Shown piece by piece: positions 1,691-43,082 of a DNA stretch of 64,000 nt. The notes below the pieces were generated by a model. It was not told where the DNA came from. It saw nothing but the letters and a program-made list of their open reading frames with translations, and did not search any database. Where the stretch lies: positions 11,761-75,760 of the IMG/VR virus record IMGVR_UViG_3300037493_002747; one strand, given 5' to 3'. Each line of letters begins with the position of its first letter. The stretch's first letter is position 1. Source of the stretch: a virus. The position numbers and the translations under genes are program-made.

Positions 1691-2440
1691 ATGGACGATT
1701 CAAGAATATCAATACTGGCCAATTCTGTTGTCAACGGTACATACCCAAGACTAGAATTGAAGCGGACGATTTTTTGCGAACAAGCTCCAGAGCAGTCTAT
1801 TCAGGCTTGGGTGGTTGACGGCGAATATGTCCGTACATTCATTGATGAAGAGTTTACCAATTTTGGTCAGCACTACCGTTTTCCGTTCATCCCGGAGTAT
1901 GAGTTCTGGATCGACAAGGAATCGGTTTGCGATGAGACAGATTTCTACATAGAGCACCTTAAGGTTGAATGGAATTCGATGCGCCAGGGGAAACCTTACA
2001 GTGTGGCGATTGTTGAGGCGGATAATGTCGAAAAGGCGATTCGCAGGCTAACAGATGATATCAGCAAGGTGATTGATCCAGTACGCAATGTTGTTGACCC
2101 CAAGTTGTTCCGTTTGAGGCTGTTAAAGTCCCTAGAGAATGGTGTGAATGTTTGGTTGGTGAATGGTCGTTTGGTTCGGAGCGTACTTCATATTGACTTT
2201 ACGCAGGGCGGACACCAATATGTCTATGAGTATGTTCCCGAAGGGGATGTCTGGATTGACAATGATATAGATTGGAATGAGCGAGGGTTCGTGATCTTAC
2301 ATGAACTTCATGAGCGTAATAGGATGGAGCAAGGACTTCCATATTCCAAGGCTCACGCAGAATCAAGTGCATTGGAACTGAGTTGCCGGAAACAGATTGA
2401 TGACTTGCATGATGCGTTGGCGGTAGAAGGCTGGGCGTAA
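1691..2440 (+). CDS. internally duplicated protein with a HExxE putative metal-binding/metallopeptidase-like motif
   Basis: Two related halves (WVVDGEYVR..FTNFGQHY.F.FIPE.EFWID and WLVNGRLVR..FTQGGHQY.YEYVPE.DVWID); HELHE...AH occurs only in the second half. Confidence 0.7.
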   Translation: MDDSRISILANSVVNGTYPRLELKRTIFCEQAPEQSIQAWVVDGEYVRTFIDEEFTNFGQHYRFPFIPEYEFWIDKESVCDETDFYIEHLKVEWNSMRQGKPYSVAIVEADNVEKAIRRLTDDISKVIDPVRNVVDPKLFRLRLLKSLENGVNVWLVNGRLVRSVLHIDFTQGGHQYVYEYVPEGDVWIDNDIDWNERGFVILHELHERNRMEQGLPYSKAHAESSALELSCRKQIDDLHDALAVEGWA

Positions 2441-2459
2441 GTTAAGACTGGAGACTTGT

Positions 2460-2921
2460 ATGACTCGTGAATATGCAATTGCTAGCCGGTTGGTTTCTGC
2501 TTCGCACCAAAGGAAGGCGGCGACAGTTGACATTGTTCAGGATAGAATTTCAGAAGCCATAAGGTCTCTGAGTTATCTTCCAGTGGAACACTCTTTCCAG
2601 GATAGTCGTCAGGGGAAGATGGCCAAGGATAAGGTCAGCAAGGCATTGTCTTTATTGGAGGAAGTTCTATCGGACCTGCCGACACCTGTGACATACACGG
2701 TATATGGGTTGCCTGGGGTGGGCTCATTCTCCGATGTTCAGGATTTTGAAAGAGCGTTGGCGGCTAAGGGTATTCGCAAGATTGGTGTGTCAAGAAGCCA
2801 GTCTCTCCGTAAAGAATTGCAGGGGCAACCGATGTTTGATAGTCTTCTTGGGCCGATGTATGATGGTCCTAAGAAGGTCAGGTATGAGACCTCTGACGTG
2901 AATGACACGCTTTCGAGGTAG
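2460..2921 (+). CDS. hypothetical protein with N-terminal leader motif (AIASRLVSA)
   Basis: 153-aa ORF, GGAG upstream. Confidence 0.75.
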   Translation: MTREYAIASRLVSASHQRKAATVDIVQDRISEAIRSLSYLPVEHSFQDSRQGKMAKDKVSKALSLLEEVLSDLPTPVTYTVYGLPGVGSFSDVQDFERALAAKGIRKIGVSRSQSLRKELQGQPMFDSLLGPMYDGPKKVRYETSDVNDTLSR

Positions 2922-2925
2922 GATT

Positions 2926-3798
2926 ATGTCACAGAATGCAAACGAACGTTCGGGACTGGCCTCAAAGTATCTGCCAGTTACACCACCTAGAAAGAATCTT
3001 CATCGCATTGCTATGGACTTATTGGGGATGGCCAAGTCTTTTCTAGCAGATGATAAATGGGAAGCCCCGGAAGGTGATCGTAAGAATTGGCGGAAACGGA
3101 ATCAGGATGGCAGTTACGAGTACCGGGAAACTCCGCCAGATGGTAATGCCCCAAGTCAGAAGAAGGATGAGTCGCAAGTAAAGATGTCTCCAAAGAATGA
3201 GGAGACAGGTGAAAAACCAAAGAAACGAATTCAGTATAAGTCGTACCTCAAGTTGGATAAACCTAAGCTGCAAGAGATTCTCACAAAGGGACATTATTCG
3301 CTAATATCGGCTGGCAAGAATAGTAGTGATCCCAAAGAAGCACTGATGAAAGCAGATGACGAGTTTTTCCATAAGAGACATGAGGAATTGAGAGGTGAGT
3401 TGGAGAAGGCTGGACTTCCTTACACGGAAGTAGTTGGACATTATGGCGGAGGAAAGGAAAACACATTCTTGGTGTTTCACGATGATACTGAACTTACTCC
3501 GAAAACGGAAAAAGCCATAATGGTACATCATCGAGACGAAGATGATGCTAAGAAGAATCGGACGATTCTGAATGACATGGGAAAGAAGTTCAATCAAGAG
3601 AGCGTCCTACATGCCGGTAATGGTAGGAATGATATGTCTTTCACAACTGGTCCGAAGGCAGGAGTAACTTGTGGCGGCAATGGGTGGAATGAATCTGATG
3701 ACGCTCTTGACAATTACACGGATATTGAATTGGAAGGAACAAAACACACGAAGTTTCAGTTAGACATACGGGAGTGTTTTGAAAGGGGACTGTTGTGA
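2926..3798 (+). CDS. hypothetical protein with a C-terminal DUF3293-like domain
   Basis: Pattern LISAGKN..RHEEL..L...GHYGG..E.TFLV..GKKFNQESVL. Confidence 0.6.
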   Translation: MSQNANERSGLASKYLPVTPPRKNLHRIAMDLLGMAKSFLADDKWEAPEGDRKNWRKRNQDGSYEYRETPPDGNAPSQKKDESQVKMSPKNEETGEKPKKRIQYKSYLKLDKPKLQEILTKGHYSLISAGKNSSDPKEALMKADDEFFHKRHEELRGELEKAGLPYTEVVGHYGGGKENTFLVFHDDTELTPKTEKAIMVHHRDEDDAKKNRTILNDMGKKFNQESVLHAGNGRNDMSFTTGPKAGVTCGGNGWNESDDALDNYTDIELEGTKHTKFQLDIRECFERGLL

Positions 3799-4121
3799 TG
3801 TCTACTCGAATCTCAGAGGAAATTTTGGCGATAGCAGATGAACTGCAAGCACAGCCAAAGGAGAATCCACCATTCAAGCGGGATGAAGAAGGATATGCCA
3901 CGGTCACTTTCAAGATCAAAGGTGACGCCCTGAATGAACTCTTGAAACTCATAAAACAGTGTGAGTATATGGGGAATATAGGGCATTCTTTTTCAATCGT
4001 TGTTGATCCCAGAGGTGGTAAAGATCGTAGACGCAATATTGGGTTCGACGGAGATGGGTCAGATCGAGTGAAGGACATTCTGGTGAATGGTGAGCCTTTA
4101 CCGGAGAAGTTCGACTGGTAA
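3798..4121 (+). CDS. hypothetical protein with N-terminal leader motif (ISEEILAIADELQA)
   Basis: Overlaps the stop/start codons of both neighbours. Confidence 0.75.
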   Translation: MSTRISEEILAIADELQAQPKENPPFKRDEEGYATVTFKIKGDALNELLKLIKQCEYMGNIGHSFSIVVDPRGGKDRRRNIGFDGDGSDRVKDILVNGEPLPEKFDW

Positions 4122-4459
4122 TGGAGGTGAATATGAGAATTGGAAACATGCTCTCTAATATTGCATATGGAATATCTGGTACAAAGGTGTGTTGGGTTCG
4201 TGATGGTTCCGCTGTTTCGATTATGGCTATTCTTCCAGAGTCGAATCGGATGGCAAATAGAGAACAGTCTATTCGACTAGCAGAGAAGGCGGAACGAATA
4301 GCAGAACGAGAAGCTTCTCGCATTGGTGTTGTTATTAAGACGGGTGCATTTATGGGTGGCGAGGGCAATGGACACATCCAAGCAACCGGCGTTGCTGAAA
4401 TACCTTGGGCTCCAGACATTGAACATAGGCTATCTCTTGTCGGAATACATGAAGGTTGA
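4121..4459 (+). CDS. hypothetical protein (alternative start 4133)
   Basis: 112-aa ORF; GGAGGTG precedes ATG 4133. Confidence 0.7.
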   Translation: MEVNMRIGNMLSNIAYGISGTKVCWVRDGSAVSIMAILPESNRMANREQSIRLAEKAERIAEREASRIGVVIKTGAFMGGEGNGHIQATGVAEIPWAPDIEHRLSLVGIHEG

Positions 4460-11498: not shown

Positions 11499-11794
11499 TC
11501 TTCCCGTTTCAGTGTCAAAAATGTAGTAAGAGTTTTGATGAGGAGTTCCCGATAGGTAAAGCACCTCGCGTGACTCCTTGTCCTCATTGCAAGGGTAATG
11601 GCAAACGCATTTACGATGGAATGTGCGTTGCTGTTAAAATTGGAGGGGCATTTTGTCATTCGTCAACCTTTGGCGAACAGATGAAGGCCCGGAATATGCA
11701 GGCAGCGCAACGGATGAAGGGGCGTAAGGCCCCGGTACGACTAGCCGCAATGGATCATGGCGGTGGTGACGTACGTGAGGTGAAAGCAAAGTGA
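11495..11794 (+). CDS. FmdB-family zinc-ribbon protein
   Basis: F.CQKC...F.......CPHC pattern. Confidence 0.75.
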
Positions 11795-35081: not shown

Positions 35082-38000
35082 ATGTCGGATTGGACCAGTT
35101 ACGAAAAAGAGCGATTCTATCATATCGCTCGACAAGCAGAAATCGTGGTCATCAAGGACCGTGATGTCATCGCGTTTATCCCCGAAGCCATAGGGCTTGC
35201 AGCTACACAGGGGATTGATCTTTATCGTAAAAGTGATGAGACATATTCCATGTGGAAGTCTACTCCGCCTGTTGCAGTAGAAGCTTCCGAAAGATTGCTT
35301 TGTTGGACTAGAGTTTCAGGAACAGAGATGGTGTCGGGTTATAGATGGGTTCCTTATATTACTTCCGACAACCCGGACACTACAAAGATATTGCCATTGC
35401 GGGAAGTGTTTTCCCCACGAGTAACCTATGACAGAACTAGCAATATGTTACATCTGTGGTTCTGGACGAATGTCAAATGGGATTACACGGGAACGGAATA
35501 TTCCGAGGACAATATTTTCAAGATTGGGTACAAAGACTACAAAAGCTTTTTTGACAATGCCGCTAACAAGATGACGTGTAAACGAGTCTTGTGTTATGCG
35601 GTAGGACAGTTTGGAAATTACTGGATAAAGGGCGGATTGATTGATGGTTATCAAGGATTTTTGGGGCTACAAGGTGTCCAGAATGATCAGTATGACATTA
35701 TTCCTGTTTTCACTCGACCGACGATCATTACAAATTTTTCGGTAACGAGTTTGGATGACGCTCCCGGACTTATTACTGATGGATGGTACGAGATTCAGGG
35801 TATCCAAAGTGGCTTTCAAGGATTCCAAGGCTTTCAGGGATTTCAAGGCTTTCAGGGTTTTCAGGGCTTTCAAGGATTTCAGGGTTTTCAGGGATTTCAA
35901 GGATTTCAGGGATTTCAAGGATTTCAGGGATTTCAAGGATTTCAGGGATTTCAAGGCTTTCAGGGCTTTCAAGGATTTCAGGGGTATCAGGGTTTTCAAG
36001 GATTCCAAGGCTTTCAGGGATTTCAAGGATTTCAGGGTTTTCAGGGATTTCAAGGCTTTCAGGGTTTTCAGGGATTTCAAGGCTTTCAGGGTTTTCAGGG
36101 ATTTCAAGGCTTTCAGGGTTTTCAGGGTTTTCAGGGATTTCAAGGCTTTCAGGGTTTTCAGGGATTTCAAGGCTTTCAGGGTTTTCAGGGATTTCAAGGC
36201 TTTCAGGGTTTTCAGGGATTTCAAGGCTTTCAGGGTTTTCAGGGATTTCAAGGCTTTCAGGGTTTTCAGGGGTATCAGGGCTTTCAAGGATTTCAGGGGT
36301 ATCAGGGATTTCAAGGCTTTCAGGGATTTCAAGGCTTTCAGGGTTTTCAGGGATTTCGAGGCTTTCAGGGTTTTCAGGGATTTCAAGGATTTCAAGGTTT
36401 TCAGGGCTTTCAAGGCTTTCAGGGTTTTCAGGGATTTCAAGGATTTCAAGGTTTTCAGGGCTTTCAAGGCTTTCAGGGTTTTCAGGGGTATCAGGGTTTT
36501 CAGGGGTATCAGGGCTTTCAAGGATTTCAGGGGTATCAGGGTTTTCAGGGGCTTCAAGGATTTCAGGGTTTTCAGGGGCTTCAAGGATTTCAGGGTTTTC
36601 AGGGGCTTCAGGGTTTTCAAGGGTTTCAGGGTTTTCAAGGAAATCAGGGATTTCAGGGGAATCAGGGTTTCCAAGGGAATCAAGGATTTCAGGGGAATCA
36701 GGGATTTCAGGGGAATCAAGGTTGGCAGGGCAATCAGGGATTTCAGGGGAATCAAGGTTGTCCGGCGTGCATGACTGCCAGCGATATCTATCTACCAACA
36801 TCAGGGTCGGGGTATGCATACCCCGACGTGAATAGTGATTGTTGGTCAGCAGGAGAGATAATTTGCATATCGGTTAGTGGGAAAGTAGATCAAGGCACCA
36901 TCTCGTACATTAATGAGGGTTCTATTCGATTTACACTTGATACTAATCCTTCGACGGGGGGGTACTATTCAAATGGAACCATATGTCATGGTGGTTGTGC
37001 TATCGGAATGCAGGGTTTTCAAGGAAATCAGGGATTTCAAGGCAATCAGGGATTTCAAGGGAATCAGGGATTTCAGGGGAATCAGGGATTTCAGGGAAAT
37101 CAGGGAAATCAGGGAAATCAGGGCAATCAGGGCAATCAGGGAAATCAGGGAAATCAAGGGAATCAAGGGAATCAAGGGAATCAAGGGAATATGGGGTGGC
37201 AAGGTCCGCAAGGTTTTCAGGGATTTCAAGGGAATCAAGGATTTCAAGGGAATCAAGGAAATCAGGGATGTTCGGCGTGTGTTAAGGGTGAGTTCAATGA
37301 TCAGGGATCAGGCAATATCTTTATCAGGGTCTTTACACCTGATTCGGCAGATTGTTTCATTACTGGAGAAACGATTTGTATTTCTGATAATAGTAGTGGA
37401 GTAGTTTTATGTTCCGCAACAGTTACCAGCATTTATTTGGAGAACAACGGTTTCTACGGCAATAATACTAATCCTTCGACGGGGGGGTACTATTCAAATG
37501 TAACTGTATGTCATGGTGGTTGTGCTATCGGGAATCAGGGATTTCAGGGGAATCAGGGATTTCAGGGGAATCAGGGGAATCAGGGATTTCAGGGCAATCA
37601 GGGATTTCAAGGGAATCAAGGGATACAAGGGAATCAAGGTATTCAGGGATTTCAAGGATTTGCAGGATGTGCGGCATGTGAGCAGACGCACAGCTCTTCT
37701 CAGGGCATCAGCATACCAACATCGGGGACTGGTAGTGCCCAGTTGGATTATACTCACAAAGATTGTTGGACTGTAGGAGAAACAATATGCGTATCGGTTA
37801 ATGGGGGGGTATCATATCAATGTTCCCTTACGAGTAAGAGTGAGATTGGCGGGTTTGATATCTATTTTACACCTAATACTTATCCTTCTGTCGCCATAAG
37901 CAATGCTGGTGGAATGGTATGTCATGGTGAATGTGTAACCCAAGGACTTCAGGGATTTCAGGGGAATCAAGGTTGGCAAGGGAATCAAGGATTTCAGGGG

Positions 38001-38366
38001 AATCAGGGCTGGCAAGGAAATCAAGGTTTCCAAGGAAATCAGGGATTTCAGGGGAATCAGGGTTTCCAAGGGAATCAAGGCTGGCAAGGGAATCAAGGAT
38101 TTCAGGGGAATCAAGGCTGGCAAGGGATACAGGGGCTACAGGGATTTCAGGGCTGGCAAGGAATACAGGGTCCGCAAGGGATACAGGGGATACAGGGGCT
38201 ACAGGGATTTCAGGGCTGGCACGGAATACAGGGAAATCAAGGGCCACAAGGGTACCAAGGCCCTGAGATGACATTTGCAACGATTGGAACACCTGTGTAT
38301 ATTCTTGGCAAGGATGCGGGCGGGAACATAGGATGGGTTGCAGTACAGACATTTACATGTCCATAG
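35082..38366 (+). CDS. collagen-like tail fibre with Gly-X-Gln repeats and three Cys-rich domains
   Basis: Four G-X-Y segments (105, 29, 15 and 36 triplets) separated by C..C...DC...GE.IC.S...CHG.C domains. Confidence 0.85.
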   Translation: MSDWTSYEKERFYHIARQAEIVVIKDRDVIAFIPEAIGLAATQGIDLYRKSDETYSMWKSTPPVAVEASERLLCWTRVSGTEMVSGYRWVPYITSDNPDTTKILPLREVFSPRVTYDRTSNMLHLWFWTNVKWDYTGTEYSEDNIFKIGYKDYKSFFDNAANKMTCKRVLCYAVGQFGNYWIKGGLIDGYQGFLGLQGVQNDQYDIIPVFTRPTIITNFSVTSLDDAPGLITDGWYEIQGIQSGFQGFQGFQGFQGFQGFQGFQGFQGFQGFQGFQGFQGFQGFQGFQGFQGFQGFQGFQGYQGFQGFQGFQGFQGFQGFQGFQGFQGFQGFQGFQGFQGFQGFQGFQGFQGFQGFQGFQGFQGFQGFQGFQGFQGFQGFQGFQGFQGFQGFQGFQGYQGFQGFQGYQGFQGFQGFQGFQGFQGFRGFQGFQGFQGFQGFQGFQGFQGFQGFQGFQGFQGFQGFQGFQGYQGFQGYQGFQGFQGYQGFQGLQGFQGFQGLQGFQGFQGLQGFQGFQGFQGNQGFQGNQGFQGNQGFQGNQGFQGNQGWQGNQGFQGNQGCPACMTASDIYLPTSGSGYAYPDVNSDCWSAGEIICISVSGKVDQGTISYINEGSIRFTLDTNPSTGGYYSNGTICHGGCAIGMQGFQGNQGFQGNQGFQGNQGFQGNQGFQGNQGNQGNQGNQGNQGNQGNQGNQGNQGNQGNMGWQGPQGFQGFQGNQGFQGNQGNQGCSACVKGEFNDQGSGNIFIRVFTPDSADCFITGETICISDNSSGVVLCSATVTSIYLENNGFYGNNTNPSTGGYYSNVTVCHGGCAIGNQGFQGNQGFQGNQGNQGFQGNQGFQGNQGIQGNQGIQGFQGFAGCAACEQTHSSSQGISIPTSGTGSAQLDYTHKDCWTVGETICVSVNGGVSYQCSLTSKSEIGGFDIYFTPNTYPSVAISNAGGMVCHGECVTQGLQGFQGNQGWQGNQGFQGNQGWQGNQGFQGNQGFQGNQGFQGNQGWQGNQGFQGNQGWQGIQGLQGFQGWQGIQGPQGIQGIQGLQGFQGWHGIQGNQGPQGYQGPEMTFATIGTPVYILGKDAGGNIGWVAVQTFTCP
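35811..36755 (+). repeat. 9-bp tandem repeat (GGN TTY CAR), 105 copies
   Basis: 945 nt encoding mostly Gly-Phe-Gln. Confidence 0.95.
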
Positions 38367-39070: not shown

Positions 39071-39125
39071 TTCCACAAGACCTGACGCATTGGTATATAA
39101 TGAGGTGGTATTGCTGGAGGTCTAT

Positions 39126-42100
39126 GTGGCTTTTGTAAGTATTGATTTGTCGAATTCTTTGGTTGTGCATGATGCCTACGAGCAAAGGACGGCTATTGCC
39201 GATCTTGGTGGGTATTGGGACGCCCAAAACAAGGCTTGGCGTATCGTATTCACGATTGCCAATTTGGAAGCACTCCTTGACGCTATTCCCGACATTTCAA
39301 CATCGGAAGACTTGGCTGTAAAGGTCAAGGATCAGATGGATAAGGAAGCCAAGCTGGAAAAACTTCGGGTGATGTCAAAGCAGGATACGCAGGTGTGTCT
39401 GCGTATTCCGGGTATGAAGCTTTCACTATACAACTACCAGCGGCTTGGCGTTATGTATGCGGCAACTAATCGTGTAGGACTATTGCTGGCGGATGAAATG
39501 GGACTAGGGAAAGGGACAACCATTGATAGCCAAGTATTTACGACTTTTGGAAAGGTTAGAATCGGATCGTTGAAGGTGGGCGACGAGGTAGTAGGCAAGG
39601 ATGGAAAACCTCATAACGTGATTGGAGTTTACCCCCAGGGAATGCGAGAAGTTTACCGTGTGTGGTTCAACGATGGGTTCTATCTTGACGTGGACAGTTC
39701 TCACTTATGGGAAGTAAGGTCTAACAACCAGCACAGCAAGGTGAGGAAAACGTCTGGGGTCGTCCTTTCGATGGAACAACTTCTGGACAAGGACGGTGTT
39801 GCGGAACGTGTCGGTGAAGGAAGGAATAGCGGTAAGACCTACAAGTTCAAAACCTACTACAAGAAAACGAACGGGAACAACTCATGGGGAATACCGATGG
39901 TTGACCCCATCCAGTTCGTACACCGCACCATAGACATAGACCCGTACCTCCTCGGAGTCTGGCTTGGCGATGGACATATTATGAAAACAGGGTATGTAAA
40001 CCTAGTAATGCTAAAGGCAGACCTTGCTGATATGAATGTTGGAGGCAAGATTGGAAGAGTAGACGCATCACACATGGAAGCTCGTCTTTTCAATACACAT
40101 AAACAGGAGTTGGTCAATCTTGGTTTGAACGGAAAGAGAGCTTGGGAGAAGTTTATACCTGATGACTATAAATACAATTCCGAAGAAGTTAGACTTGCGG
40201 TGATTCAAGGATTGATGGACACAGACGGACACGCATCGGATTGTGCGACCGAGTATTCGACCAGTTCTAAGCAGTTGTGCGACGATGTGGTTGAGATTGT
40301 GCAGACGCTTGGTGGTATCGCAAGGGTCAGGTCCAGGATTCCACGTTACTGGTATAAGGGAGTAAAGAAGACGGGAAGGACGAGTTACAGTGTCAATATC
40401 AAGTTGCCTCCTAGTATTGTTCCGTTCCGTCTACCAAGAAAGGTTGTGGACTATGATAAGTGTGACAAGTATAGTCCCGAGCGATACATTTGTAATATAG
40501 AAAAACTCGCAGAAAAGAAAGAAACGGTTTGCATCTCAGTCGATGCTCCTGACAATCTTTATGTCACGGAACATTGTATCGTTACCCACAACACCCTCCA
40601 GGCCATTGGTACAGCAATGTTCTTAAAGGCTTCGGATGGGGCGAAGAAGGCACTTATTGTTACGCCAGCATCACTCAAGTTTAACTGGCCATTGGAGATC
40701 GAGAAGTTTACAGATGAGAAGTACGTGGTCATTGATGGTACGCCGGATGAGAGAGTTGCGCAATGGCTTCGGGATGATGTGTTTTTCTATGTCGTCAATT
40801 TCGAGCTGTTACTGGAAGATTTGTTTGGAGGCAGGAAGTTCAGGGAGAAGAAGGGTGAGTCCGATGAGGACAGGCAGAGAAGGTTGGACAGGCATGAAAA
40901 GATTTCTACTAAAGCGAAACAGAGGCGGGGGATACTGACGACAGTTAGGAATAGGGTATGGGATGTAATAGCGGTGGATGAATGTTTTCCGTATGGAACG
41001 ATGATCGAAACGGATAAAGGACGGATGAGTATTGGAGATGTCGTATCTCAAAAATTGCCAGTGTCCGTTTTGTCTTGTGATTTTTCAAGGAATGTGTCAT
41101 CGTATCGACGTGTTGTTAGATGGATGGAAAAATCTATGTCTGGACACCTCGTGGAGGTGACGCATGAAAGAGGAAGTTTTGTCTGTACTTGGAATCACAA
41201 AATCTGGACAGATGAATGGGGATATATCAAAGCGGGTGAAGCCACGAAGTATGGTGAAGCGCATTTGCGAGTTTTGCCATCACGAGTTCGATGCACCTCG
41301 CAAGGGGAAGTCAACACCGAGATTTTGTTCGGTGGTTTGTTCCGGAAGATTCAGACAGATGTGTCAGGACACCGTGGCGAAACAAGTGGCAGCAAGAACG
41401 ATGCCAAAGATAGTGTTCAATTGTATGGAATGCGGTCGAGAGTTTGTGGTCAGGACGACAAAAGAGCAGGAGAGGAGATTTTGTTCGAGGAGGTGTGTGG
41501 CGATCTGGAGGTCAAAAACAGAGGATCGGAAAGACAGAATGTTGAAGATGCAGGTGGCCTGCGGGTTAGTAACGAAGGGAAAGCCGAATCTGAGATTCTC
41601 CAAGTTTATGACAGAGAAGAATCAAGACCCGGTATTCCGACAGAAGGTGATGGAGGGGGCAGCAAAGTGGAGGGAGACACATCCATCATTTCTTGTGAGG
41701 GGCGGGAAACCATTCATAACGAAGCCGCAGAGATTGTTGGCGGAAGCTCTTGGAGAAGAATGGGAGATGGAATACAAGGTCTCCGACAAGAGAATGGCAG
41801 ATGTGTTGGTGAGTCCACCTCGGTTCTATCAGATAGACATTGCAAATGTGGGAATGAAGATTGCTGTAGAGGTGGACGGAAGAACCCACAGGATGACGAA
41901 GTGGAAGATAATCGATGCTCGGAAGGAGAAGGCTTTGTCTTATCTCGGTTGGAAAGTATTAAGGTTCTGGAACGAAGAGATTTTGAAAGACTTGGACTTG
42001 GTAGTCCGGAAAATCTCCGAGTCTATAATCTCGAAGTAGAAGCTGATACGGACGACGATCATTGTTATGTTGCTGATGGTGTCCTAGTTTCTAATTGTCA

Positions 42101-43082
42101 AGCACTCAAGCATCATTCGTCCACCCGGACTCAGAATGTGCTGAACTTAAAGGCCAAGTGTCGTATGGCTTTAACAGGGACTCCGATGGATGGAAGGCTT
42201 GAGGAATTGCACAGTTTGATGCAGTTTGTGGCTCCCGGACTTCTCATGTCCAAGACTCGGTTTTTTCAGAGGCATGTTGAGACGGACTTTTGGGGTAGGG
42301 TGACTGGGTACAAGAGAATGGGAGAGGTATCTCAGAAGATTCAACAGTTCTTTCTTCGCAGGTTGAAGAGGGACGTTTTGAAGGACTTACCGGACAAGGT
42401 TTATGAGAATCGGCTAGTGTCCTTGACGGCTGAAGAACACAAAATTTACAAGGCTCTGGCGGAGCAAGGGCATGAGGCGACAGAAGATGTTTTGGCAGTA
42501 GTTTCAGTTATTCGTTGTAAGCAGTTTTGTAATTATCCTCAGATGGTGGATGCGTCGTGTACGACAACGTCAAAGATGGATTCCTTCAGAGAGGTTCTGG
42601 ATGAGGTTGTGGTCCAGAATGGTCATAAAGCATTGGTGTTCAGTCAATACAAAGAAATGCTGAATATCCTTGTCCCTGAATTGGAGAAGATGGGTATAAA
42701 GTACATGAGGATCGACGGAGACACTCCTCCAATAGAGCGGGCTTCGATGCAGAAGAAGTTCAATGAGGATAAAAGTCTTGATGTGATGATTGGAACTGAG
42801 GCTATGTCAACAGGGCTGAATTTCCAGTCAGCGGATTATGTTATCAACTATGATGACAATTGGTCTCCGGCTATTATGGCGCAACGTGAAGATAGGTGTC
42901 ACAGGAATGGGCAGAGGAATGTGGTTACGGTAGTGAACTTCATTTGTAGAGACACGATTGAAGAACGTATCCGTGGAGTCATCTACGCGAAGAACAGGGT
43001 TACGGCACAAGTCCTTGGAGATGAGACTGATGATATGGTCTTGAGAAGACTTGGTCCAAAAGATGTTTGTCAGTTGTTGTGA
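39126..43082 (+). CDS. SNF2-family helicase containing two inteins
   Basis: LLADEMGLGK/T, DE/CQ, LTGTP, LRRLK.DV, QREDRCHR.GQ motifs; GGAGG before GTG 39126. Confidence 0.9.
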   Translation: MAFVSIDLSNSLVVHDAYEQRTAIADLGGYWDAQNKAWRIVFTIANLEALLDAIPDISTSEDLAVKVKDQMDKEAKLEKLRVMSKQDTQVCLRIPGMKLSLYNYQRLGVMYAATNRVGLLLADEMGLGKGTTIDSQVFTTFGKVRIGSLKVGDEVVGKDGKPHNVIGVYPQGMREVYRVWFNDGFYLDVDSSHLWEVRSNNQHSKVRKTSGVVLSMEQLLDKDGVAERVGEGRNSGKTYKFKTYYKKTNGNNSWGIPMVDPIQFVHRTIDIDPYLLGVWLGDGHIMKTGYVNLVMLKADLADMNVGGKIGRVDASHMEARLFNTHKQELVNLGLNGKRAWEKFIPDDYKYNSEEVRLAVIQGLMDTDGHASDCATEYSTSSKQLCDDVVEIVQTLGGIARVRSRIPRYWYKGVKKTGRTSYSVNIKLPPSIVPFRLPRKVVDYDKCDKYSPERYICNIEKLAEKKETVCISVDAPDNLYVTEHCIVTHNTLQAIGTAMFLKASDGAKKALIVTPASLKFNWPLEIEKFTDEKYVVIDGTPDERVAQWLRDDVFFYVVNFELLLEDLFGGRKFREKKGESDEDRQRRLDRHEKISTKAKQRRGILTTVRNRVWDVIAVDECFPYGTMIETDKGRMSIGDVVSQKLPVSVLSCDFSRNVSSYRRVVRWMEKSMSGHLVEVTHERGSFVCTWNHKIWTDEWGYIKAGEATKYGEAHLRVLPSRVRCTSQGEVNTEILFGGLFRKIQTDVSGHRGETSGSKNDAKDSVQLYGMRSRVCGQDDKRAGEEILFEEVCGDLEVKNRGSERQNVEDAGGLRVSNEGKAESEILQVYDREESRPGIPTEGDGGGSKVEGDTSIISCEGRETIHNEAAEIVGGSSWRRMGDGIQGLRQENGRCVGESTSVLSDRHCKCGNEDCCRGGRKNPQDDEVEDNRCSEGEGFVLSRLESIKVLERRDFERLGLGSPENLRVYNLEVEADTDDDHCYVADGVLVSNCQALKHHSSTRTQNVLNLKAKCRMALTGTPMDGRLEELHSLMQFVAPGLLMSKTRFFQRHVETDFWGRVTGYKRMGEVSQKIQQFFLRRLKRDVLKDLPDKVYENRLVSLTAEEHKIYKALAEQGHEATEDVLAVVSVIRCKQFCNYPQMVDASCTTTSKMDSFREVLDEVVVQNGHKALVFSQYKEMLNILVPELEKMGIKYMRIDGDTPPIERASMQKKFNEDKSLDVMIGTEAMSTGLNFQSADYVINYDDNWSPAIMAQREDRCHRNGQRNVVTVVNFICRDTIEERIRGVIYAKNRVTAQVLGDETDDMVLRRLGPKDVCQLL
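39513..40592 (+). mobile_element. intein 1 (360 aa): class 3-type, Gly at position 1, LAGLIDADG endonuclease, inserted in Walker A
   Basis: GLGK|GTT...HLW...VCISVD...VTHN|T; LLGVWLGDG and IQGLMDTDG. Confidence 0.9.
40983..42095 (+). mobile_element. intein 2 (371 aa) inserted in Walker B, ending SN
   Basis: DE|CF..GT...CTWNH...VYNLEV...YVADGVLVSN|C. Confidence 0.9.
41164..42039 (+). CDS. Vsr/DUF559-type (PD-(D/E)xK) endonuclease with two zinc-ribbon repeats, overprinted in the +1 frame of intein 2
   Basis: CEFC..FCSVVC, CMEC..FCSRRC, IDIA....IAVEVDG.TH and D..K...L...GWKVLRFWN motifs; SD GGAGGTGA at 41153-41160. Confidence 0.85.
   Translation: MKEEVLSVLGITKSGQMNGDISKRVKPRSMVKRICEFCHHEFDAPRKGKSTPRFCSVVCSGRFRQMCQDTVAKQVAARTMPKIVFNCMECGREFVVRTTKEQERRFCSRRCVAIWRSKTEDRKDRMLKMQVACGLVTKGKPNLRFSKFMTEKNQDPVFRQKVMEGAAKWRETHPSFLVRGGKPFITKPQRLLAEALGEEWEMEYKVSDKRMADVLVSPPRFYQIDIANVGMKIAVEVDGRTHRMTKWKIIDARKEKALSYLGWKVLRFWNEEILKDLDLVVRKISESIISK

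Follow-up and report, generated by a model that had tools for sequence, protein, structure and literature searches.

The window analysed here is a stretch of 64,000 nucleotides (nt) from a metagenomic viral contig, positions 11,761 to 75,760 of the IMG/VR record IMGVR_UViG_3300037493_002747. The record is 75.8 kb long and comes from an uncultured phage (23% complete by CheckV). On the forward strand, the window encodes the precursor of an SNF2-family helicase interrupted by two inteins. This open reading frame (ORF; 39090-43082, 1330 amino acids (aa)) matches the Pfam families SNF2-rel_dom (6.4e-30) and Helicase_C (2.3e-24). Our subject is the second intein, which sits in helicase motif II, and a putative homing-endonuclease gene that overlaps its centre on the same strand, in the +1 frame.

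Intein 2 (40983-42095, 371 aa, forward strand) is inserted between the DE of motif II and the residues C-Q-A-L-K-H-H. It has the residues of a class 1 intein. These are a cysteine at its start (Cys1), the block B motif TWNH (His72), and a terminal asparagine (Asn371) followed by a cysteine in the C-extein (Cys + 1). Cys1, His72, and Asn371 are invariant across 62 aligned inteins. A preliminary description of this DNA had reported an intein with intact splicing blocks at 40983-42095, and C1, TWNH, and VSN|C are indeed all present. One residue needed correction: the C-terminal end reads VYNLEVE...VLVSN|C, so the penultimate residue is serine, not histidine.

The AlphaFold2 (AF2) model of intein 2, built with 62 relatives in the alignment, has two ordered ends and a disordered middle. 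The N-terminal HINT lobe (aa 1-100, 40983-41282) contains blocks A and B and has a predicted local distance difference test score (pLDDT) of 92-97. The C-terminal HINT lobe (aa 319-371, 41937-42095) contains blocks F and G and the terminal asparagine (pLDDT 84-96). As modelled, these ends are a HINT splicing fold. They align with the Mtu RecA mini-intein (2IN0) at Z 19.4, with 135 residues aligned and a root-mean-square deviation of 1.9, and with the NrdJ-1 split intein at Z 19.3 (135-137 residues aligned over both comparisons). Between the lobes lies a stop-free linker (aa 101-318, 41283-41936) that is predicted to be disordered and without a domain, with a pLDDT of about 45-50 over aa 101-315. 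The earlier statement that the intein centre lacks a recognisable domain agrees with the roughly 215 residues modelled as disordered and with profile searches, in which the intein-frame translation of the centre matched nothing in Pfam or PHROG.

The same searches give a different answer for the +1 frame. The nested gene (41164-42039, forward strand) encodes 291 aa, as the preliminary description had it, and residues 221-287 match DUF559 (PF04480) at E 1.6e-13, with 50.9 bits against a cut-off of 20.6. The protein also matches 3HRL by sequence (3.4e-5). Its AF2 model, from a 71-sequence alignment, has a mean pLDDT of 86.8. The C-terminal catalytic domain (aa 184-291, 41713-42036) is of the Vsr/DUF559 type and aligns by VIA-align with 3HRL (Z 12.8), I-Bth0305I (3R3P; Z 11.2), and Vsr (1CW0; Z 10.5). 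A plain Foldseek search of the nuclease returned no nuclease match at E <= 0.001, and its top rows were I-Bth0305I and 3HRL. Asp225, Glu236, Asp238, His242, Asp251, and Lys254 are invariant in the 71 nuclease sequences. The nuclease thus belongs to the Vsr-like/DUF559/EDxHD superfamily.

Ahead of the catalytic domain are two Cys4 zinc-ribbon repeats with the pattern CxxC...FCS..C (aa 35-59 and 87-111; 41266-41496; pLDDT 94-97). They presumably form a DNA-binding module. The cysteines of the second ribbon (Cys87, Cys90, Cys107, and Cys111) are conserved in at least 90% of the 71 sequences, and the zinc region matches PHROG 1271 and 15471, both annotated as HNH endonucleases. Residues 1 to about 30 of the nuclease are unconserved and modelled with low confidence.

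Judging from the two models, most of the DNA serves one protein or the other. The unconserved start of the nuclease lies opposite the structured N-lobe of the intein, and the structured part of the nuclease lies opposite the disordered linker. The two frames both encode conserved structure only over about 33 codons at the 3' end (41938-42039). Here, the C-terminus of the nuclease (LGWKVLRFWN...) coincides with the initial strands of the C-lobe of the intein (...LESIKVLE...), and both frames have conserved columns and high pLDDT. The linker in frame 0 also has a few nearly invariant columns, such as L167, R296, and an RSGR-like consensus. These columns are shadows of nuclease codons such as those for EVDG, and they could pass for the motifs of a real domain.

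Recurrence of the overlap and selection within it

Both frame 0 and frame +1 are free of stop codons over 876 nt, as had been noted from the sequence. The third forward frame has 29 stops across intein 2. How unusual the double openness is was measured by shuffling synonymous codons in the nuclease ORF 20,000 times. On average, the shuffled sequences have 13.3 intein-frame stops, and not one of the 20,000 is stop-free, unlike the real sequence. The double openness in the window is not chance.

The arrangement is found well beyond this contig. A tblastn search of GenBank phages with the nuclease found 40 records, and in every one the matched gene is labelled helicase or something similar. The helicases of Vibrio phage CP-T1, Vibrio phage K391, and Corynebacterium phage phi673 have the nuclease match in their +1 frame, and each has an intein at DE|C...HN|CHH. 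A pattern scan of IMG/VR gave at least 251 relatives, and 80 loci from it were retained. In 81 of 83 phage and viral loci, a longer ORF on the same strand contains the whole nuclease ORF, which is always at +1 to it. A scan of prokaryotes, with one genome per species, gave 33 long matches, and 30 of them have the same +1 layout. These come from many bacterial phyla and one archaeal metagenome-assembled genome.

The hosts are SNF2 helicases, ResIII/DEAD helicases of superfamily 2, clamp-loader AAA+ proteins, and helicase-methylase fusions. The inteins of the family are all at the DE of Walker B/motif II or within a few residues of it. In an unrooted tree, the nucleases group largely by host class, with a few switches. 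Identities of the intein N-lobe and of the nuclease are weakly correlated across the family (Spearman 0.25), and none of 500 permutations gave a value as high.

Two family-wide patterns bear on which frame is under selection. The first is stop avoidance. Across 72 unique loci, codon shuffling predicts 11.2 host-frame stops per locus. The third nuclease position is T in 28% of codons elsewhere and never T ahead of codons starting AA, AG, or GA, a zero that holds by construction in loci with an open host frame, which leaves the expected number of stops as the informative figure. The second is the substitution pattern. All 15 pairs compared have the most substitutions at nuclease codon position 3, equivalent to host position 1, and in all 15 amino-acid identity is higher in the nuclease frame than in the host frame. 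The window and its relative L004, for example, share 57% aa identity in the nuclease frame of the overlap and 40% in the intein frame. Together, stop avoidance and the substitution pattern indicate that purifying selection acts on the nuclease protein in the overlap, while the host frame is only kept stop-free.

The idea that only the +1 register can stay open was considered and rejected. Codon logic lets synonymous changes mostly fix the other register too, which makes common ancestry the likelier reason for the constant register.

Relatives without the overlap

Several relatives show the parts of the element in other arrangements. The closest helicase relative, L085, has a C-extein 69% identical to that in the window and is syntenic with it, with the same genes as neighbours. 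Its helicase, of 583 aa, lacks both inteins, and its motif II site reads VDEAQAIRNH. Such an empty site is what would be expected of an element that is still mobile.

The nuclease also occurs as a free-standing gene. In L064 and L066, it lies between structural genes. In L099 (3001-4933) and L111 (2866-5308), it lies directly upstream of a ResIII-type helicase without an intein, with the motifs DESHH and DECHH. The L099 and L111 nucleases are closest to those nested in inteins of ResIII helicases (46-47% identity). In L105 (2127-4841), the nuclease frame is broken and the helicase/intein frame is open, a state expected for the decay phase of a homing cycle.

A further arrangement is a split one. 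In L116 (2427-4721), an SNF2-like helicase is fractured into separate ORFs. The first encodes the N-extein and the N-intein and is followed by the nuclease in the same relative frame. The third encodes the C-intein and the C-extein, and its ATG is within the 3' end of the nuclease gene. The former linker frame has 23 stops. Three viral contigs (L166-L168; L166 and L168 at 2011-4251), with nucleases 62% identical, have the L116 layout and the same ORF ends. This indicates that the split state has persisted. The four loci form a well-supported clade in the unrooted tree, with 23-25 stops in the former linker frame. The preliminary description had raised a possible route to or from split inteins, and this clade lends support to a link between the overprinted nuclease and split inteins.

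In one nuclease family, then, three states stand side by side: genes standing alone next to helicases that lack an intein, genes overprinted in contiguous motif II inteins, and genes flanked by the two halves of a split intein. One tentative history, which we hold to be possible though not the likelier outcome, would make the overprinted form an intermediate. A free-standing gene would have entered a mini-intein, and split inteins would have followed once the linker gained stops. The constant +1 register and the shared dual-coding 3' joint would, on this history, be the signature of a single ancient composite element that moved among the Walker B sites of unrelated ATPases.

Expression, mobility, and alternative explanations

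A Shine-Dalgarno (SD) sequence, GGAGGTGA (41153-41160, forward strand), lies within the Val-Glu-Val-Thr codons of the intein ahead of the nested ATG (41164), where it had first been pointed out. Its GGAGG core ends 6 nt upstream of the ATG. In the nuclease frame, its last three bases read TGA, a stop placed one codon upstream of the ATG. Of the long ORFs in the window, around half are preceded by sites of the GGAGG/AGGAG type. An SD of at least 5 nt together with a start codon is found at the start of the nested gene in 27 of 72 family loci, compared with about 6% in control windows.

These features point to a composite selfish element, made up of a class 1 intein in helicase motif II and a separate homing-endonuclease gene in the +1 frame over the intein centre. 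We regard this as very probably correct. The earlier reading of the locus as a dual-coding mobile element is favoured by selection on the nuclease frame, by an SD and ATG of its own, and by the recurrence of the layout in 81/83 and 30/33 loci. Ribosomes in the helicase frame would pass through the disordered linker, about 215 aa without a stop, and the HINT lobes would fold and splice, restoring the DE-C-Q of motif II. On the same mRNA, the internal GGAGG and ATG would start translation of the zinc-ribbon and Vsr/DUF559 nuclease. The nuclease would most likely cut intein-free alleles near the motif II codons, and repair of the cut would copy the whole element in (homing). Within the overlap, selection would act on the nuclease protein, and the host frame would stay open solely through the choice of third-position bases in nuclease codons.

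Several observations weigh against this interpretation. The usual penultimate histidine of the intein is replaced by serine, a replacement common to relatives in the SNF2 subgroup. Intein 2 itself has no Pfam intein match. Its identity comes from alignment to relatives that do exceed the PF14890 cut-off of 35.8 bits (L026, 42.1; L059, 43.8; L001, 42.6) and from the AF2 model. With a clear SD in only 27 of the 72 loci, the mode of initiation may vary from host to host. A search within the element found no sigma-70-like promoter, and the nuclease gene is therefore probably read from the helicase mRNA. Finally, a perfect 6-bp hairpin (CACCTC-gtg-GAGGTG, 41145-41159) pairs the nested SD with an upstream CACCUC. 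Over the surrounding 91 nt, the fold as a whole does not reach significance (z = -1.1). The hairpin may keep nuclease expression low or couple the nuclease to translation of the helicase frame, a suggestion drawn from the sequence.

A different explanation grants the overlap and disputes its function. The nuclease could no longer drive homing, being either a decaying remnant or a protein taken over for another role, for instance in repair or in excluding competing phages. The homing-cycle model does predict loss of function after fixation. L105, with its broken nuclease frame and open host frame, fits that prediction, and free-standing members occur beside intein-less helicases and elsewhere. 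In the window, however, the ORF is intact with all invariant catalytic and zinc residues present, the nuclease frame is under purifying selection family-wide, and the close relative L085 has an empty site. We consider this explanation improbable.

Still harder to sustain is programmed +1 ribosomal frameshifting, in which the nuclease would be made as a fusion to the N-terminal part of the helicase and the intein N-lobe, without separate initiation. The nuclease is on the same strand and mRNA as the helicase, and no internal promoter-like site accompanies it, as frameshifting would have it. Yet the TGA in the nuclease frame precedes the nested ATG by one codon, and a shift upstream of 41158 would therefore terminate. 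No slippery site was noted. The SD is a good one, 6 nt upstream, and SD plus start codon are enriched at the nested start across the family. The first 30 or so residues of the nuclease, moreover, are unconserved and of low confidence. Together, these points make frameshifting very unlikely.

The weakest alternative, an assembly or sequencing artefact in which two compensating indels mask an ordinary in-frame endonuclease domain, has in its favour that the window is a metagenomic viral contig, but it is effectively refuted, since a truly in-frame nuclease would leave frame 0 free to gain stops and nothing would hold that frame open over 876 nt (13.3 stops expected, 0 present), the identical +1 offset occurs in 111 independent loci, finished phage genomes included, and, as a weaker point, a long-protein search for an in-frame nuclease returned nothing but unrelated DUF559 fusions, with 23% query coverage.

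Known systems and the surrounding locus

The composite reading set out above has published precedents. Inteins of actinobacteriophages have been reported with endonucleases encoded in another frame or on the other strand (bioRxiv 10.1101/2025.01.02.630785). The types described there are antisense LAGLIDADG, antisense Vsr-like, and same-strand frame-3 endonuclease VII-like, in DNA polymerase, minor capsid, terminase, and thymidylate synthase genes. The authors propose that these arrangements arose when a free-standing endonuclease gene invaded an intein. As in those inteins, the endonuclease ORF studied here lies between the splicing blocks and out of the intein frame, the centre as read in frame lacks a fold, and a Vsr-like nuclease is among the reported types. 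Unlike theirs, which is antisense, the present Vsr-like gene is on the same strand at +1 and carries zinc ribbons. It is found at motif II of helicases and clamp loaders, and its range extends far beyond actinophages.

A second precedent is a cyanobacterial dnaX intein with an out-of-frame LAGLIDADG endonuclease (bioRxiv 10.64898/2026.09.14.751524), a report that credits Gorbalenya 1998 with the first proposal. The two systems share the same-strand overlap, purifying selection on the nuclease frame, a relaxed intein frame, and a sporadic distribution. They differ in that the dnaX case concerns a LAGLIDADG enzyme in a '+2 ORF' of a cellular gene in one phylum, whereas here the nuclease is Vsr/DUF559, the register is +1, and the hosts are many phage ATPases.

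Fractured genes form a third comparison. In these, a free-standing Vsr-like (EDxHD) or GIY-YIG endonuclease lies between the halves of a split intein (Dassa et al. 2009, PMC2677866). I-Bth0305I (PMC3239194) represents the shared nuclease fold class (Z 11.2). Phage replication genes serve as hosts in both cases, and the 3' end of the nuclease gene overlaps the start of the C-intein coding region. The fractured layout is matched exactly by the relatives L116 and L166-L168. In the window, unlike in fractured genes, the intein is unbroken, and no stop interrupts the helicase frame anywhere along the nuclease gene. Finally, ShiLan-type out-of-frame HNH insertions in phage methylases (PMC11855218) also hide an endonuclease gene in another frame of a stop-free host frame, with zinc fingers flanking the nuclease. 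Those insertions differ in having no detectable splicing domain, an HNH nuclease, and the third frame.

The concept is thus already published for other nucleases, frames, and strands, and is not a new principle. The preliminary description implied more novelty than these two preprints on out-of-frame and antisense intein endonucleases allow. A full-text literature search turned up no publication describing a zinc-ribbon/DUF559 gene on the same strand at +1 in motif II inteins. The family may be the largest so far of inteins whose putative homing enzyme is a separate overlapping gene. It is widespread and unannotated: gene callers have missed it, and GenBank labels the host genes plainly as "helicase". 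It is also experimentally tractable. With the element present in the cultured phages CP-T1, K391, and phi673, it becomes possible to test homing, translation from an internal start, and splicing over a long disordered linker. That one nuclease family includes free-standing, overprinted, and split forms bears directly on how endonucleases and inteins join and on the origin of split inteins. The overlap is, in addition, a clean natural example of a frame held open purely by synonymous codon choice in an overlapping gene.

The remaining features of the locus concern the helicase and its surroundings. Translation of the helicase likely starts at a GTG at 39126, with GGAGGT ahead of it. The helicase region had no megablast matches among GenBank phages. 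Intein 1 (39513-40592) is in the P-loop of the helicase and contains an in-frame LAGLIDADG domain. Its junctions read GLGK|...THN|TLQ, with threonine as the +1 residue. The first residue of the intein is glycine (alanine in relative L004) in place of cysteine, serine, or threonine. A block F cysteine and the terminal T-H-N suggest that intein 1 may use a class 3-like splicing route. At the corresponding site, the intein-free relative L085 reads GLGKTLQAL. Directly upstream of the helicase operon, 35082-38366 encodes a 1094-aa protein with long collagen-like runs of Gly-Phe-Gln and Gly-Asn-Gln triplets and cysteine-rich modules between them.

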